A stretch of 64,000 nucleotides of DNA. It comes from a virus (taxonomy: Duplodnaviria > Caudoviricetes). The translations under genes were made by a program, and so were the position numbers. The first letter of the stretch is position 1. Every line of letters starts with the position of its first letter. Shown here piece after piece: positions 26,290 through 33,960 of this stretch. Below the pieces are notes generated by a model that saw nothing but the letters and a program-made list of their open reading frames with translations, did not search any database and was not told where the DNA came from. The DNA lies in IMG/VR virus record IMGVR_UViG_2511231106_000004, positions 32,001 to 96,000 of that record. One strand, given 5' to 3'.

Positions 26290-26437
26290 GCCGTATCAAT
26301 GTTCAGACTATCCGTCCAGCTTTTGGAATACCCGCTTGCTGGTCGGTCATAATGAAATCGAACTTACTGATTGCAGATTATATTTCTGCATTTGCGGTAT
26401 TCAGATTCACAGCCACACAGAAAATTCCACACATGCA

Positions 26438-26446
26438 TGGTATAAT
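26438..26446 (+). promoter_or_regulatory. Extended -10 promoter for the plus-strand operon
   Basis: TGgTATAAT about 150 nt upstream of ATG 26597. Confidence 0.55.
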
Positions 26447-26515
26447 GTTAGAAAACCAGTAGTCACACTTCCTTCCACCTCCCGTCTTCAATTTCTGATT
26501 TCATCCTATTCTTGA

Positions 26516-26596: not shown

Positions 26597-27988
26597 ATGC
26601 CCTCACAAAACAACTTCCACGTTCCCCATTTATGCGGTGGTATCCTGTTCAATCTTTTACTGGAAACAAGAAAAACACGCGGAAAAATCCGTGACAGGGC
26701 ACATGGCGGAACAGACGGTCTTTCTGATTTGGATGTATATATAGGACTTGTAAATGTTGTAGCTGGCAATGACTGGAAAGATGTTGACGGGACAACAAAA
26801 AATAAATGTGTATCTAACTATAAAAGGTGCGTGGACAGCACAGGTTCATATGTTCCTTTTACTGATGAGGTTTTTAGGAAAGCCTTCGATTCGGAATACA
26901 ATAAAAAAAGCCCTGCCCTCCTTGAAAGGATGGCAAGGTTCATAGAACAGTATTTGAGTCTTGAAAAGTGCAAGTGGCTTGGCAAAGCATTGATTGAAAT
27001 CATGCAAAAAGACCCTTCAATCAATGATGATGCCGAAATTGCTGTAGACTTTGGACAAAATATTTCTGTAAAAAAACTGCATGAGGCAAAGAACATTCAC
27101 TTTTTGCCTTTTTTCCTAAGCGTACTGCATTACGTAATCGATAATTGCCCTGACTGCGAATCCGGGCGGTCCACCTTTGAAACCTGGTATTGCCAAGTTG
27201 GTCCGAAAGCGCCATGGAAACCCAAACATGATGTACTCAGTAAACTCGGTGGCACCATCGGCGATATGGAAGTGTCAGTGAATCTGGAAGTTCAGAAAGC
27301 CATTACGATAAAAGATGCAGAACATAGAAATTCCGAGAGTACATCTTCTGCAGATGAATGCTCATCGGAAAAGCCAGATAAAAATAATGATATTCTTTCA
27401 TCCGAATCCCCGCTTTCCAACCGTGATACCACTCTTTTACCCCGGCTGGCGAAGGGATTCAACAAAATATTGAAGTTTGCCAAAGACACGGACCTCAGTA
27501 TAGAACGTATGCCTTCCGAAATTCTGAATACCTTTGAGACCCTGTATAATGAATGGAAGGATCAAGACACGGACTTTAAAGATCCGGAACTGAATAAATT
27601 GAAATATGACATTCTAAATACATTGTATTGGTATATCAACTTCTGGGGAACTCATCTTTGGCTCAACGATGATTCTGATTGCTTTGTCCACCTAAAAAAT
27701 ACGTACAAAGATTCCTGGAAAAAAGAAGGAGAACTTCGTCAGCAGGCCATGAAGGACAGAGAAGCTTTCACCCGTCTGCATGAAAGGCTTTGTCGGTATA
27801 TCATAGACTTTGATATCGATCTAAACAAAACTGAACCAGTTGAAGCCAAGGTCGTAGAAGAAACGCCGCCTCTGGAAAATAATCAAGGCGGCAGCCGGAC
27901 TACAATTATCGAGCACCAGACCAATATCGGCCACAGTGTGTCAAAGACATATAACATAAAGGACAGCACTGTCACATTTAATGATTAA
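26597..27988 (+). CDS. Hypothetical protein (463 aa) with C-terminal amyloid-like motif
   Basis: AGGAGG RBS; ends QTNIGHSVSKTYNIKDSTVTFND. Confidence 0.85.
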   Translation: MPSQNNFHVPHLCGGILFNLLLETRKTRGKIRDRAHGGTDGLSDLDVYIGLVNVVAGNDWKDVDGTTKNKCVSNYKRCVDSTGSYVPFTDEVFRKAFDSEYNKKSPALLERMARFIEQYLSLEKCKWLGKALIEIMQKDPSINDDAEIAVDFGQNISVKKLHEAKNIHFLPFFLSVLHYVIDNCPDCESGRSTFETWYCQVGPKAPWKPKHDVLSKLGGTIGDMEVSVNLEVQKAITIKDAEHRNSESTSSADECSSEKPDKNNDILSSESPLSNRDTTLLPRLAKGFNKILKFAKDTDLSIERMPSEILNTFETLYNEWKDQDTDFKDPELNKLKYDILNTLYWYINFWGTHLWLNDDSDCFVHLKNTYKDSWKKEGELRQQAMKDREAFTRLHERLCRYIIDFDIDLNKTEPVEAKVVEETPPLENNQGGSRTTIIEHQTNIGHSVSKTYNIKDSTVTFND

Positions 27989-28001
27989 GGAGAAACAATG
28001 T

Positions 28002-28652
28002 ATGAAGAATTTAACAGCTCCTGGCCCACATCAAGTGCGGCCGATAGCCCAAACGAATATAGGGAATCAGGTCATAAAGACATACAACATTCAGGACAGC
28101 AACGTTAACATCTATAATACGTTTCCACCTAACCAAGGGAATCCATATAGTGCAGCCCAAATGATTGCACTCAATAATTTCAGCAAAGAATATTATCAGC
28201 TCCTCGTTACCTGTGAAACAGATGTCTTTGAAAATAATAACGCCACATTTCCCTTAGACCGTGCGTTAAGTCAAAGGTATGTTCCGGAAGAAATATTAAC
28301 CCGTTGTTCGTCTTTGTCAGAAGAAGGGATTGCCGAACTGAAGACCTTTCCGGCCATTGTCTGTATGGAAAACACAGGGTTCAATGGAATTACAGATCCT
28401 AATCAAACCGCGATATTCGCATATATAACACGAGTAAAAATGGAAGGCTACCAAGTTAGAGTGGCGTTCCAGCCCATTGCACCATTCCATCAAAAAATAC
28501 TTTGTGAACAGAAATATGCTATTTATTTCGACTTGAACATGAGTTGTGCCATTACGGATTTGAATCGCACTGCCTGGTCTATCCATAAAGTGAATCTTTT
28601 TGAAGCTTTCAATGAGTCTGGACTGGGATATCTCCCGCACCCTTCTATTTAA
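28002..28652 (+). CDS. Hypothetical protein (about 216 aa) with matching N-terminal amyloid-like motif
   Basis: AAGGAG RBS at 27987, ATG 28002; QTNIGNQVIKTYNIQDSNVNIYN near the N-terminus, then a globular domain ending LNRTAWSIHKVNL. Confidence 0.85.
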   Translation: MKNLTAPGPHQVRPIAQTNIGNQVIKTYNIQDSNVNIYNTFPPNQGNPYSAAQMIALNNFSKEYYQLLVTCETDVFENNNATFPLDRALSQRYVPEEILTRCSSLSEEGIAELKTFPAIVCMENTGFNGITDPNQTAIFAYITRVKMEGYQVRVAFQPIAPFHQKILCEQKYAIYFDLNMSCAITDLNRTAWSIHKVNLFEAFNESGLGYLPHPSI

Positions 28653-28664
28653 AGGTGACTGTCT

Positions 28665-31016
28665 ATGAACAGAAAATATCCAAGCGAAATAACAGAAATT
28701 AGAGTGGATGATGCAACCTTTAAAAATACAGGCACTGTCATCACCCCCACCTATATCAACTACTTTTTCGGAAACAACGGCACGGGAAAATCCACTATTG
28801 CCAAAGCAATCCAATCTGGAACTGGCATCAAGTATGCTCCAGGAAGATCTGCCACAGACTACCAGGTATTGGTTTTCAACCAAGAATATATCAATCGAAA
28901 TATGCAGAACTTCCATAACCTTCCAGGTGTTTTTACGATGGCCGAGGAGAATGCAGAAATCCAGGACAAGATTGATGAGGCTGCAGAGCAGCTGGCTGAT
29001 GCACAGGAAAAAGTATCAGATGCCACGGATGAAAAAGAAAAATTAATTAAAATAAAAAAAGAAATCTGTACAAAGTTCTACGATGAAATCTGGCGGCGGA
29101 CTGGAAAACTGCGTAAAACATTTCCAGGCACACAGGCTGGATACCTCAAATCAAAGGCTAATTTAGCCGACAAAGTAAAACTGTGTTCACCCAGCGAATA
29201 TGATTTGGATGATCTTAAACGGATGTATGATTCTGCCTACTCTTCTACAGCACAGAGCTATCCTCGCTTTAATACAATTAGCGATACTACTGTGCTTGAC
29301 AGCATTGAAGGCAGCGAAATTCTATCTGTTGCAATTGTCAATTCCTCAGATACCCAACTTGCAAAATTTTGGAAGAAAATCAAGGCTTCCGAATGGGTGC
29401 GTCAAGGCCATTCTGCATATCATGGCAAAACCGATGGGAAATGCCCTTTTTGTTCACAGCCTTTGCCTTCAGAATTTGAAAAATTCTTGACAGACAGTTT
29501 TGATGACCAATACGAGAAGAACCTTACAAAGCTATCAGCATTCCTTGAAGATTACAGAAACACAGCCAACGCTTTATTTATGCCTTTGTCAAAACTTCCA
29601 GAACCGCTATATCCTGTCCTTGATGAAAAACCCTACAAGGATAAACTGGAAGCCCTAAGAGGTATTATTTCTACAAACATAAACCGGATAAAAGAAAAAA
29701 TAGCCGAACCTTCTAAATCTATTAAATTGGATAATACCGCACCACTACTACAAGAACTCCAAAAAATGATTACAGATTATAATAAACTAATTTCTGATAA
29801 CAACATGGTAGTTGCTGATGCCCCTAAGAAAAAAGAAGAATGCAAAGAAAAAGTCTTTTCTTTCATGTCCTTCATAACAAATGAAACAATCAAGGCTTTC
29901 AACAAAAGTATCTCTGACATTAATAAACAGCTAAACAAGCAACAGGAAATCATTGATACTCAGACAGAGCAAGGTGCGGATATCAGAGAAGAAATCCGTG
30001 TTCTAAACAGCCAGACAAAAGAAACTGAGTCCGCCATGAACAACATAAACCTTATGCTGAAAGATGCCGGATTCCAGGGATTTAAAGTCTGTCCCCACTG
30101 GGAAGAAAGAAGAAATCCGGATGGTTCTGTAAAACGAGTGATTCCTTCGCCGATTCGTAACTATGCTGTAGTCCGTACCGATACCGAAACAGGAGAAGAA
30201 GAAATTGCACATGACCTTAGTGAAGGAGAAAAGAATTTCATCGCCTTCCTGTATTTCCAGCAAACTGTATTCGGGAGCACTGACGCAGACAGCGATTCTC
30301 TGCAAAAAATAGTTGTTATTGATGACCCCGTTTCCAGCATGGACAGTGGTACGCTTTTTATTGTAAGTGCTCAAATCCGTAAGATGATCCATATTTGCCG
30401 AAACAATGTTGACAACCGGCAACCGGCAGCAGATGGAAATTTCATCAAGCAGATTTTCATTCTTACCCATAATGCTTATTTCCATCGAGAGGTAAGTTAC
30501 CTTTATGCCCGACAGTGGAACTTTGTATCTTTTTACCTGGTCCGCAAAATCAACAATAAATCTTCCGTCCAGTTGTTTGAAAAGCAGAACCCCGACTGCC
30601 CTACCAAAATGATGAATGTCAATCCCGTCAAGAACTCCTACGCTGCCCTTTGGGAATCTTATAAGGAAGTCCGGAGCGGTATCCCGTTAAAGAGCACCAT
30701 CCGCAGGATTTTAGAATATTATTTCCTGCAATTATGCGGCTATGAAGGAGACGATTTGAGAAAACGTATCCTGGAAGACCATAAGAACAACTTTCTATAT
30801 GACGAAAATGGCCATGAAACTCCAGAACGATACGAGATGGCTAAGGTCCTTCTGTCTTACATCATCTCCGATAATTCCAGCGTGAATGATGGAATCAACT
30901 ACACGGACGATTTCCTCGATGAACAGCTTTACAGGGATACATTTAAAATGATTTTCAAATACATGAATCAGGAACAGCACTTCAATATGATGATGGGTAA
31001 CGAACAAGGAGAATAA
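28665..31016 (+). CDS. RloC-like SMC/ABC ATPase (AAA_13) with zinc hook
   Basis: GNNGTGKS Walker A, coiled coils with central CPFC, LSEGE signature, VVIDDPVSSMD Walker B/D-loop, LTHN H-loop, C-terminal IRRILEYYF domain. Confidence 0.9.
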   Translation: MNRKYPSEITEIRVDDATFKNTGTVITPTYINYFFGNNGTGKSTIAKAIQSGTGIKYAPGRSATDYQVLVFNQEYINRNMQNFHNLPGVFTMAEENAEIQDKIDEAAEQLADAQEKVSDATDEKEKLIKIKKEICTKFYDEIWRRTGKLRKTFPGTQAGYLKSKANLADKVKLCSPSEYDLDDLKRMYDSAYSSTAQSYPRFNTISDTTVLDSIEGSEILSVAIVNSSDTQLAKFWKKIKASEWVRQGHSAYHGKTDGKCPFCSQPLPSEFEKFLTDSFDDQYEKNLTKLSAFLEDYRNTANALFMPLSKLPEPLYPVLDEKPYKDKLEALRGIISTNINRIKEKIAEPSKSIKLDNTAPLLQELQKMITDYNKLISDNNMVVADAPKKKEECKEKVFSFMSFITNETIKAFNKSISDINKQLNKQQEIIDTQTEQGADIREEIRVLNSQTKETESAMNNINLMLKDAGFQGFKVCPHWEERRNPDGSVKRVIPSPIRNYAVVRTDTETGEEEIAHDLSEGEKNFIAFLYFQQTVFGSTDADSDSLQKIVVIDDPVSSMDSGTLFIVSAQIRKMIHICRNNVDNRQPAADGNFIKQIFILTHNAYFHREVSYLYARQWNFVSFYLVRKINNKSSVQLFEKQNPDCPTKMMNVNPVKNSYAALWESYKEVRSGIPLKSTIRRILEYYFLQLCGYEGDDLRKRILEDHKNNFLYDENGHETPERYEMAKVLLSYIISDNSSVNDGINYTDDFLDEQLYRDTFKMIFKYMNQEQHFNMMMGNEQGE

Positions 31017-31020
31017 TGAA

Positions 31021-31224
31021 ATGCGTATCAGCTACAATAAACTATGGAAGTTGTTGATTGACAAAAATATGACCAAGATGGAATTAAAGGAAGCAGCCGG
31101 AGTAAGTTCCGCTTCGATTGCAAAGCTCGGCAAAGGTGCCAATATTACAACCGATGTCCTGCTTAAAATCTGCGAGGCCCTTCATTGCCGTGTAGAAGAT
31201 ATTATCGAAACGATCAATGATTAA
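31021..31224 (+). CDS. Small Cro/C1-type (HTH_26) regulator
   Basis: 'ISYNKLWKLLIDKNM.K.EL...G.S.ASIAKLGK..NITTDVLLKICEAL'. Confidence 0.92.
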   Translation: MRISYNKLWKLLIDKNMTKMELKEAAGVSSASIAKLGKGANITTDVLLKICEALHCRVEDIIETIND

Positions 31225-31290: not shown

Positions 31291-33960
31291 TTACCAAACT
31301 ATTGAACGGTGGTCTTTTATCCTATCGTTCAGATGTTGTGCATTTATGACTTTAGAAAGAATATTCCTGAATACACAGATATTCTTTTTAGGGGAAAATA
31401 AAAAATGAGCCTTCGAAGGAAAATCCTTCAGAAGCCCATATATCAAGCCGCTTTTACTGTTTGGGGTGCGGAAAATTTTTTTATCAATACGGAAAGGCTT
31501 ATTTTTATCATCTTTATCATTTATCCGTACACGTTCTACCTTATGCCGGTCATTATCCTTGCCAGAAATACGGTCCACACGGAACCGATCAGCAGATGCC
31601 ACTTTTTCAACTTCAGGAGCAAATTCGCTCAAAGAACGTCCCATATCTGCATCTACAGGAGCCCCGTTTTGTAACGCACGATAGACAATAGCTGCATATT
31701 CATAACGAGTCATTGCTCGATCGCCTTTAAACTCACCATCTGTATATCCATTTAAATAGCCTCTATCGGCCAAACTCTTAACATACTGATAGGCCCAATG
31801 GTCTTTTGGAACGTCCGAGAAATTAACATTTCTCATAGGAGAAACTGTGCCAGCTTTCATCATGTTTTTCAATTCATCAAGTTCTTGGCGCATTTCCAAA
31901 TTATCATTACGTAAGGCAATAATTTCTTTTGCCATAGATACCTTAGACCGGCTAACAGTACTCTTCTGTCCCAGTTTAAAAGTCACGCCGGCATTAACCA
32001 TGTTTTCTCCACCACCGAAGCTCCCTCCGACAGAAAACATAGTATCTTCGTTAGGTCTATAGAAAGCTCCTACAGCTACAGCATGGGCATCTTTGTAGTT
32101 ACCATAACCTGTTGCAAAGTCCCACTTATTATCGGGATCAAAATCTTGGGGATGAAGAGCTGATAAAGCTGCTGCACCAGCACCGACTCTGTTTATACGG
32201 GTATCCATTTTATCTAATCTGCCAGTTAAAGAGCCTCCCGGAAGCTGTATATCATTGAAATAGCCTACACCCGCATGAACATCTCCTTTAATATTTGCAT
32301 CACCATCTACTTGGAGATTTTGTTGAATATGAGTATCACCAGCGATGGTTGTATTCCCACCAATATTGGTATTGCCGTCTACCTGGAGATCCTGTTTCAG
32401 GTGGGTGTCACCACCTACCGTTGTATTGCCGTCAATATTGGTATTGCCGTCTACCTGAAGATCCTGTTTCAGGTGGGTGTCACCGCCTACCGCTGCATTA
32501 CCGTCAATATTGGTATTGCCGTCTACCTGAAGATCCTGTTTCAGGTGGGTGTCACCACCTACCGTTGTATTGCCGTCAATATTGGTATTGCCGTCTACCT
32601 GAAGATCCTGTTTCAGGTGGGTGTCACCACCTACCGTTGCATTGCCATCAATATTGGCAGCACCTCCGATGTGGGCATCGCCAATGGTAGTAATAGAATC
32701 AAACGTTGGGTTCTTGTCCATCTTGACTGTGATGGTCGTATTGCCTGCTCCGTCTTGGCTCACAACGGTTTTGAGGTTATCCCCGGAGTATTCGGTGTCC
32801 GCTTTTGCGCCTTCACCTACTACGTTAACTGTACTCCCCAGTTTGGCCGTAGCCGGATTTGCCGCACCGCTTGCAGAATTGGCACCAAACTTCAGGCCGT
32901 TATTGATGAGTGTCTGCCCGTACTGATATACGCCATTGCTGGTAGCGAGATCTGAATTCCCAGCTGCAATCGTGTCTGTGCCATTTACGCTGATAGTATA
33001 ATTAGTACTTCCGCCAGCACCTGTATTAGATGATACCGAAACGTGGCTTCCACCTGTAATAGTGGTTCGAGCAGCAGCTGCAGCCTGTGCTACAGCAAAG
33101 AGCTGTGAACCATTTACTGCGTCTGTAGACCCTGCATCCACACGTCCAGCAGCCAGATGCGTCAACGTACGTTGTGTAGTGCCGTTGCCTATGGAAACCG
33201 TTCCATTGACATTGGTTCCTGCGAAGTTATAATTCTGGCTTCCAATGGTCATTCCTGCAGTTGAGACGGCTCCTTCTGCAGACGAACCCGCACCTAAGGC
33301 AACAACATTTGAAAGTCCGTCTATATTAATTCCTGCCCCTAACGCAACATTATTATTTCCGTTTGAGATATTATTACCTGTCCCCAAGGAGACACTATCA
33401 AAAGAATTACTACTTGTACTGCCAGTACCTATGGAAATCCCATTACCAACGCTATTTTCGATTTTTACGCCCTGTCCTATCCCGATAGTTGTTGTGCCCA
33501 ATGCATATCCTGATAATCCTGTAGTGGTAGGTACTGAATCAATATTGCCGATCATAATAGATGCATAGTCAGCTCTAGCACCAGTTCCGATTGCAATGGC
33601 TCCGGTATTGACGTCTTGGCTTAACGGATTGCCAACAGATGCTTTAGAATTGGCGCCGATAGCAATAGCTGTATTACCACTATGTCCATTTGAAGCAGTA
33701 CTATCTACTGCAGCTGCATTGTCGCCAATCGCGATACCCTGTTGGTACTTATGGGCTCCATCACCCGATGTTACACCCTCGGCAAATGCGGTTCCCAAAC
33801 TAAGGCTTGATCCTAACAGTACAGCAAGTGCGCCGGCTACTACTCTGCCAGTGACTCCAAGCTTGTTCCCATTATTCCTTCCGTAACTTTTTGCCAGTTC
33901 AGAAGTAACCACATAGCAGTTACGCACCCGATTCCAAACCAACTTATAAATTCTGTTCAT
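31291..33960 (-). CDS. YadA-like trimeric autotransporter adhesin with ESPR signal, YadA anchor and C-terminal SLH domain
   Basis: MNRIYKLVWN..RNCYVVTSELAK (ESPR), AIAIG head repeats, 'LAAG....STDAVNGSQL' stalk/neck, 'GAGAAALSAL...AVGAFYRPNE' anchor, 'FSDVPKDHWAY...GY.DGEFKGDRAMTRYE' SLH. Confidence 0.92.
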   Translation of the reverse strand: MNRIYKLVWNRVRNCYVVTSELAKSYGRNNGNKLGVTGRVVAGALAVLLGSSLSLGTAFAEGVTSGDGAHKYQQGIAIGDNAAAVDSTASNGHSGNTAIAIGANSKASVGNPLSQDVNTGAIAIGTGARADYASIMIGNIDSVPTTTGLSGYALGTTTIGIGQGVKIENSVGNGISIGTGSTSSNSFDSVSLGTGNNISNGNNNVALGAGINIDGLSNVVALGAGSSAEGAVSTAGMTIGSQNYNFAGTNVNGTVSIGNGTTQRTLTHLAAGRVDAGSTDAVNGSQLFAVAQAAAAARTTITGGSHVSVSSNTGAGGSTNYTISVNGTDTIAAGNSDLATSNGVYQYGQTLINNGLKFGANSASGAANPATAKLGSTVNVVGEGAKADTEYSGDNLKTVVSQDGAGNTTITVKMDKNPTFDSITTIGDAHIGGAANIDGNATVGGDTHLKQDLQVDGNTNIDGNTTVGGDTHLKQDLQVDGNTNIDGNAAVGGDTHLKQDLQVDGNTNIDGNTTVGGDTHLKQDLQVDGNTNIGGNTTIAGDTHIQQNLQVDGDANIKGDVHAGVGYFNDIQLPGGSLTGRLDKMDTRINRVGAGAAALSALHPQDFDPDNKWDFATGYGNYKDAHAVAVGAFYRPNEDTMFSVGGSFGGGENMVNAGVTFKLGQKSTVSRSKVSMAKEIIALRNDNLEMRQELDELKNMMKAGTVSPMRNVNFSDVPKDHWAYQYVKSLADRGYLNGYTDGEFKGDRAMTRYEYAAIVYRALQNGAPVDADMGRSLSEFAPEVEKVASADRFRVDRISGKDNDRHKVERVRINDKDDKNKPFRIDKKIFRTPNSKSGLIYGLLKDFPSKAHFLFSPKKNICVFRNILSKVINAQHLNDRIKDHRSIVW
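32290..32690 (-). repeat. Intragenic 72-bp (24-aa) tandem repeat, 4 near-identical copies plus degenerate flanks
   Basis: GTGGGTGTCACC at 32401, 32473, 32545, 32617; unit GGDTHLKQDLQVDGNTNIDGNTTV. Confidence 0.95.

Follow-up and report, generated by a model that had tools for sequence, protein, structure and literature searches.

The 64,000-nucleotide stretch analysed here (hereafter the window) corresponds to positions 32,001 to 96,000 of the IMG/VR virus record IMGVR_UViG_2511231106_000004, a provirus of 111 kb, and carries in a single copy a cassette of four genes on the + strand, called A, B, C and D. Protein A ends with a short motif closely resembling the one found near the start of protein B, and matching termini were found again in every related locus examined, where the motifs belong to at least six types and switch together. 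From these sequence comparisons, the A and B motifs most likely constitute an effector-sensor relay of the amyloid-signalling kind. The features directly concerned are the following, N1 designating the N-terminal domain of A and T1 the motif type of the window.

Gene A, 26597..27988, + strand: 463 residues; N1 at the N-terminus, then a helical middle part, a linker with acidic and Pro/Gly residues, and the motif at the C-terminus; putative effector.
Gene B, 28002..28652, + strand: 216 residues; the motif near the N-terminus, a linker with Pro/Gly and a globular domain of PUA-like type; putative adaptor on the sensor side.
C-terminal motif of A, type T1, 27899..27985, + strand: residues 435-463, columns 436-462 being invariant or at least 90% conserved.
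N-terminal motif of B, type T1, 28050..28118, + strand: residues 17-39, predicted to be disordered in the monomer.

The motif pair in the window

A preliminary description of the window had placed the two copies of the motif at 27917-27988 and 28050-28118, and rereading both open reading frames gave the same positions. The last 23 residues of A are encoded at 27917-27985. In the family alignment the conserved A-side motif begins earlier than first noted, at residue 435 (position 27899), and no other segment in the C-terminal half of A is as well conserved. In A-side motifs of types T1 to T3, an extra conserved strand combining hydrophobic residues with Gln/Thr lies just upstream of the part matched in B (27899-27916 in the window). 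For gene B, the start codon at 28002 is the best candidate, an alternative in-frame ATG being present at 27981.

When A and B are compared by BLASTP, the sole aligned segment joins residues 441-459 of A to residues 17-35 of B, with 14 of 19 residues identical (E = 1e-5 for this single comparison). A script found differing codons at 8 of these 14 identical residues, as first noted, and 39 of 57 nucleotides identical. The flanking linkers are also as described: an acidic and Pro/Gly linker precedes the A motif, and one rich in Pro, Gly and Asn follows the B motif. In the AlphaFold2 model of the B monomer, residues 1-41 have a predicted local distance difference test (pLDDT) score below 50, and residues 50-216 are modelled with confidence.

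Could this resemblance be devoid of function, reflecting either chance likeness between low-complexity segments or a remnant of duplication or gene conversion at the site where a gene was split? The biased composition of the motifs, in which Asn represents 26% of residues, does raise chance similarity. Yet the last 40 residues of A aligned with the first 60 of B score 71, and 5000 composition-preserving shuffles, with a mean of 23.8 and a maximum of 53, never reached this value (z = 9.3, p ≤ 2e-4). The conservation of the motif within A is difficult to reconcile with a remnant, as are fused relatives that have no such segment at their junction. Moreover, over 67 distinct A/B pairs, the two motifs agree at 50% of amino acids and 57% of nucleotides, and 59% of the identical residues use different codons. 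Since the codons of identical residues often differ, the likeness is not kept by gene conversion; the maintenance at protein level suggested from the window alone is thus borne out. We regard an absence of function as scarcely credible.

Set against the remaining parts of their own proteins, the motifs show an enrichment of Asn (5.3-fold), Gln (2.8-fold), Thr (2.1), Gly (2.0) and Val (1.6) and a depletion of Pro, Leu, Lys, Ala, Arg and acidic residues, Ile being unenriched (0.93-fold). Published bacterial amyloid signalling (BASS) motifs are rich in Asn, Gln, Gly, Val and Ile, poor in Pro, Lys and Leu, and about 25 residues long (Dyrka et al. 2020, bioRxiv 10.1101/2020.01.06.895854). The composition found here largely agrees with this bias, except for Ile.

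Motif types across related loci

Sequence searches retrieved 72 homologues of A and 205 of B. Scans with the B alignment identified 30 loci in genomes, 80 in metagenomes and 22 in viruses, belonging to Clostridia, Lachnospiraceae, Negativicutes and their phages. Scoring covered 111 loci, namely the window together with those from genomes and metagenomes, many of them on contigs that end early: C adjoins B in 107, an open reading frame precedes B in 102 and D is present in 79. B, C and D are conserved across the loci; the body of the upstream protein varies, and its end is always a motif resembling the head of its own B. In many loci N1 is replaced by a shorter N-terminal domain of about 130 residues, N2, found with the same set of motifs and with either sensor core, that of the window and that of the Lamassu-like loci described below.

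Two main motif types were distinguished: T1, and T2, which contains more Gly and Asn. The 67 distinct pairs comprise 14 T1-T1 and 53 T2-T2 combinations and no mixed one. On the tree of the B globular domain, the motif type has changed at least five times, four of these changes being forced by well-supported branches. To take account of phylogeny, alignment scores with the own partner and with a swapped partner were compared in 27 phylogenetically independent locus pairs; 13 contrasts were positive, 4 negative and 10 zero, favouring the own partner (p = 0.025), and the four contrasts across types were all strongly positive (+27 to +70). Co-change can also be specific to one locus, as in L033, where both partners have a Cys at the same motif position. 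At positions aligned in register, opposite charges exceed like charges (29 vs 16), a count to which we give little weight as the loci are non-independent.

The matching extends to more distant relatives. Nine pairs were tested and all scored above composition-preserving shuffles (z = 3.3-12), with at least six motif types represented. Phage genomes (L140, L141) whose PUA-like B relatives are 26-31% identical to B have further motif types, matched within each locus. In loci L133 and L137, a third motif type closes the A-type protein and also heads the protein that follows, whose remainder is a CTD6 domain of ABC-three-component (ABC-3C) systems (E = 5e-33); MC2 (E = 3e-44), a 600-residue SMC-like ATPase and the same helix-turn-helix (HTH) gene as D in the window follow. 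Because ABC-3C corresponds to Lamassu, this arrangement can be described as LmuA split into an effector-plus-motif protein and a motif-plus-C-terminal-domain (CTD) protein. Finally, in L152 a protein made of N1 and a motif overlaps the start of a 945-residue NACHT and SNaCT14 protein with a matching head; judged from its sequence, this is a classical effector/NLR arrangement. The absence of an NLR partner, noted initially, is therefore true of the window locus and does not extend to its relatives, in which N1 is also found within NACHT and NB-ARC proteins.

These loci bear on the possibility that both motifs are a shared address, binding the same third partner (for example the dimeric ATPase C, a membrane or a phage protein) and not each other. 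The strict linkage of C to B would fit such a scheme, in which the arms of a Rad50-like dimer could receive two proteins bearing one tag. On the other hand, the motif type switches repeatedly though the loci keep a C of the same family, and the tail-to-head rule also holds where C is absent, with a NACHT NLR or a Lamassu CTD6 protein as partner as well as in distant A-B pairs devoid of C. We consider this explanation very unlikely.

As a separate observation, in an Acidaminococcus sp. genome (that of locus L002), the A homologue (L143, 1207-2829) runs into unrelated sequence. Its motif-coding end is on a separate short contig (L145), and B (L002) starts near a contig edge; gene A may be interrupted in this genome, or the assembly may be broken.

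Proposed effector and sensor sides and their possible connection

The domains and the other genes of the cassette are as follows.

N1 domain of A, 26597..27301, + strand: residues 1-235, all-alpha.
Globular domain of B, 28149..28649, + strand: about residues 50-216, alpha/beta, PUA-like.
Gene C, 28665..31016, + strand: 783 residues, an ABC/Rad50-like ATPase of the AAA_13 type in which a CPxC zinc hook is conserved; member of the PADLOC candidate defence family PDC-S06.
C-terminal domain of gene C, 30640-31016, + strand: conserved Arg, Glu, Gln and His residues.
Gene D, 31021..31224, + strand: 67 residues, Cro/C1-type HTH protein (Pfam HTH_26, E = 4e-18).

Neither A nor B matched a family in Pfam, PADLOC, PHROGs or NCBIfam, and the Atlas search for B returned only unnamed, mostly viral clusters. 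The AlphaFold2 model of N1 is all-alpha (pLDDT 88, predicted template modelling score 0.87), and the fold searches with it gave no match (best E = 1.2 for Foldseek against PDB, best Z = 2.7 for VIA-align, best score 0.80 for the Atlas). A profile search collected 1107 N1 clusters at 50% identity; in nearly all of the 150 clusters listed, N1 is at the N-terminus. Most members of 280-350 residues end in N/Q-rich motifs of many types, the long ones are N1-NACHT-SNaCT14 or N1-NB-ARC proteins, and other fusions pair N1 with CTD6, with a B-like domain or with GmrSD_N (DUF262), the last in the 473-residue P0185. These fusion architectures place N1 in the effector position of bacterial NLRs and LmuA-like proteins. 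A role of N1 as a Bell/HeLo-like membrane domain was considered and set aside, its only basis being a pattern near the N-terminus, where a short hydrophobic helix precedes a basic stretch. A stand-alone N1 of 220 residues, without motif, occurs beside unrelated large genes (L135, 7001-7663).

The globular domain of B likely resembles, at the level of the fold only, the PUA-like readers of modified nucleic acids (EVE, YTH, ASCH, McrB-N). With its model, the top 17 VIA-align matches are all PUA-like readers with modest Z scores of 4.7-6.5 (VcaM4I and PH1033, Z = 6.5; McrB-N, Z = 5.7), and Foldseek returns YTH and Lon-N (E = 4e-3). Gene C belongs to Pfam AAA_13 (E = 5e-111) and matches PADLOC PDC-S06 over its full length (PDLC04890, E = 1.8e-199, residues 9-781), with weaker matches to LmuB (3e-17), PrrC and Rad50-type models, that of PrrC covering only the ATPase part. 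The residues C260, P261 and C263 of the zinc hook are conserved. Among 53 homologues, conservation reaches 95% or more at R680, R681, E684, Q769, Q771 and H772, the last being a conserved His close to the C-terminus.

We think it fairly likely, from the sequences compared, that A-B-C-D is a prophage-borne anti-phage cassette, in which a templated relay through the matched motifs leads from the sensor side to the N1 effector; it would probably act by abortive infection. In this scheme A would carry the effector, B together with the Rad50/RloC-like ATPase C would form the sensing side and D would be a regulator. The two matching motifs, about 25 residues each and disordered at rest, would connect sensor to effector. 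Once the sensor side is triggered, B would be released or clustered, its N-terminal motifs would gather into an in-register cross-beta (amyloid-like) nucleus, and this nucleus would recruit and template the similar C-terminal motif of A. The templated tails of A would then cluster or unlock N1, which would harm the cell. Four elements of this scheme are inferred: a cross-beta state of the motifs, a signal running from B to A, a triggering event and a toxic N1. The release or clustering of B as nucleation step is proposed by analogy with Lamassu, in which the oligomerisation domain of LmuA is held by LmuB/LmuC and the freed LmuA oligomerises and becomes active (Li et al. 2025, bioRxiv 10.1101/2025.03.14.643221).

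A different scheme would be a constitutive docking tag: the motifs would zip up as a finite beta-sheet of small size and keep A permanently tethered to B, like the two halves of one effector-sensor protein that has been split. There would be neither templating nor polymerisation, and activation would take place elsewhere, for example by release from C. Its main support comes from fusion proteins lacking any motif, namely those linking the B domain to N1 (P0170, P0179) or to N2 (P0119), one linking N1 to CTD6 (P0180) and the all-in-one N1-NACHT and N1-NB-ARC proteins, where plain linkage would be enough; the tight operon spacing of most loci, with overlapping stop and start codons, is also in its favour. 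However, a heterodimeric zipper requires complementarity, and it is similarity that is conserved between partners in at least six unrelated-looking motif types, which makes us favour in-register parallel stacking, for which such likeness is needed, over a simple zipper. The composition, rich in N/Q/T/G and poor in Pro, is that of known amyloid signalling motifs, and the motif is disordered in the model of the B monomer. A further argument is given by a family of fusion proteins of 391-403 residues (P0194-P0200), in which N2, or a truncated N1, is joined to the B domain and one copy of the T2 motif is retained in the linker; locus L007 (1518-2747) has the same layout. As a pure A-to-B tether would be redundant in these proteins, their sequences suggest that the motif also assembles with itself. 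Taken as an explanation of the pairs, permanent docking appears to us rather unlikely.

Several points nevertheless weigh against the templated relay. First, N1 has neither a known fold nor obvious catalytic residues, so that the case for it as an effector depends on where it stands in other architectures. The motif-less fusions indicate that tethering N1 to a sensor-side domain can suffice. Co-switching alone is no proof of selection, because the two motif segments are adjacent (within about 100 bp) and one recombination event can swap both; partner resemblance in every motif type is a stronger argument. For fine-scale co-variation within one type, the independent contrasts give only a trend (9 positive vs 4 negative, p = 0.13). 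PDC-S06 is a candidate defence system only, and C may, from its conserved residues, carry its own RloC-like nuclease, which would leave the role of A less clear. Finally, in the distant pairs L153 and L154, in which N1 plus motif precedes motif plus PUA-like domain, the genes that follow are others than C. Such A-B pairs may be a module attachable to several defence systems. In L153 (1498-6175), the next genes encode an N6 methylase and a type I S subunit, and in L154 (1486-8259) a SNF2 helicase, DUF4391 and a Schlafen/AlbA_2 protein.

Relation to known systems and surroundings of the cassette

The data fit the logic of the HET-S/NWD2, Bell/NLR and Bab/Agp systems, in which the effector bears the motif at the C-terminus and the sensor-side protein bears it at the N-terminus, all-in-one equivalents being found as well. 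The closest parallel is Bab/Agp of E. coli (BASS11), for which motif-dependent amyloid signalling in anti-phage defence has been described (Ibarlosa et al., bioRxiv 10.1101/2024.11.07.622273). There too, adjacent genes of a prophage defence locus encode an effector with a C-terminal motif and a sensor with an N-terminal motif, of about 20-25 residues, and abortive infection is proposed. Since the Bab/Agp sensor is not an NLR, an NLR sensor is not obligatory for an amyloid motif pair. The two systems differ in the effector, a small Bell-type domain in Bab/Agp and N1, of about 235 residues, here; in the hosts, here gut Firmicutes and their phages; and in that the present system is known from sequence alone.

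Bell-domain/NLR pairs (BASS1-10; Dyrka et al. 2020, bioRxiv 10.1101/2020.01.06.895854) and the fungal HET-S/NWD2 pair likewise combine adjacent genes with matched terminal motifs, several motif families with the same composition bias and all-in-one proteins carrying the effector on the NLR, and the relative L152 is exactly an effector/NACHT pair. In contrast, the partner of A in the window is a PUA-like protein accompanied by an AAA_13 ATPase, an NLR partner being encountered only in the relative L152. Moreover, the published systems were reported mainly from multicellular Actinobacteria and Cyanobacteria, with helical pore-type effectors, and N1 has no detectable similarity to Bell/HeLo domains. 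The initial proposal of an amyloid-relay type of pair is partly supported, by the motif matching, the co-switching, the likeness kept at protein level and the motif-less all-in-one fusions, and has to be amended in that the pair is not free-standing: it is part of a cassette with an AAA_13 ATPase and an HTH gene, and parallels a split LmuA.

Lamassu/ABC-3C systems (Li et al. 2025, bioRxiv 10.1101/2025.03.14.643221) share with the cassette a coiled-coil ABC ATPase and a variable N-terminal effector linked through a C-terminal docking/oligomerisation domain. L133 and L137, as sister loci, are genuine ABC-3C systems (CTD6, MC2 and ABC ATPase), and have N1/N2, the motif logic and the HTH gene in common with the window. 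The window differs from Lamassu as it has no match to middle-component or CTD families and as C matches LmuB weakly. RloC/PrrC-type Rad50-like anticodon nucleases resemble gene C by their AAA_13 architecture and zinc hook; the nuclease domain of such enzymes is C-terminal, with conserved catalytic Arg, Asn and His residues. As for PDC-S06, it is a single-gene candidate in PADLOC, whereas here B always precedes C, and A usually does as well.

In the literature searched, we found no described split of LmuA by a matched motif and no paper joining amyloid motifs to Lamassu, AAA_13, PDC-S06 or RloC, and a 2026 review describes bacterial amyloid signalling only as NLR-linked BASS. New here are the unrecognised motif families, set beside BASS by published description only, the putative N1/N2 effectors and, on the sensor side, either a Lamassu core or a PUA-like protein paired with a Rad50/RloC-like ATPase. 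So far, bacterial amyloid signalling comprises one functional example, Bab/Agp, and predicted NLR/Bell pairs. If the relay proposed here is true, templated beta-assembly would be a modular plug between effectors and diverse sensors, including the Lamassu-type SMC/ABC systems, in which the known activation step is effector release and oligomerisation. It would also provide a natural set of orthogonal motif types for specificity swaps and synthetic signalling parts, reveal a large new effector domain without known fold, and add partner genes to the ‘single-gene’ candidate PDC-S06. A wider generalisation, about which our doubts slightly outweigh our confidence, would be that in gut Firmicutes and their phages at least six templating motif types wire N1, as well as N2, to NACHT NLRs, to Lamassu with split LmuA and to the PUA-like reader with its Rad50/RloC-like ATPase, amyloid nucleation being a general output of SMC/ABC-type immunity.

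Concerning expression, contigs from RNA libraries (four metatranscriptome runs of three studies) cover each of the four genes and run across the A/B, B/C and C/D junctions. This is weak evidence, in agreement with a single transcript from A to D, with DNA carry-over as an alternative. RNA contigs from two studies (runs X15 and X17) both start at 26464-26466, about 130 nucleotides before the start of gene A, positions 26300-26463 being uncovered; this common start is a weak hint of a transcript start. A simple promoter scan detected no + strand site near 26464-26466, and the scan for promoters and terminators gave no excess over shuffled sequence.

Upstream of the cassette, the opposite strand carries early genes of the phage, coding for a primase-helicase, a deoxyribosyltransferase and an anti-repressor, together with a sigma-like gene. 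Directly past the cassette, at 31291-33960 on the - strand, lies a gene for an 889-residue protein with YadA-like repeats and SLH-like C-terminal repeats, an architecture typical of Negativicutes surface adhesins.

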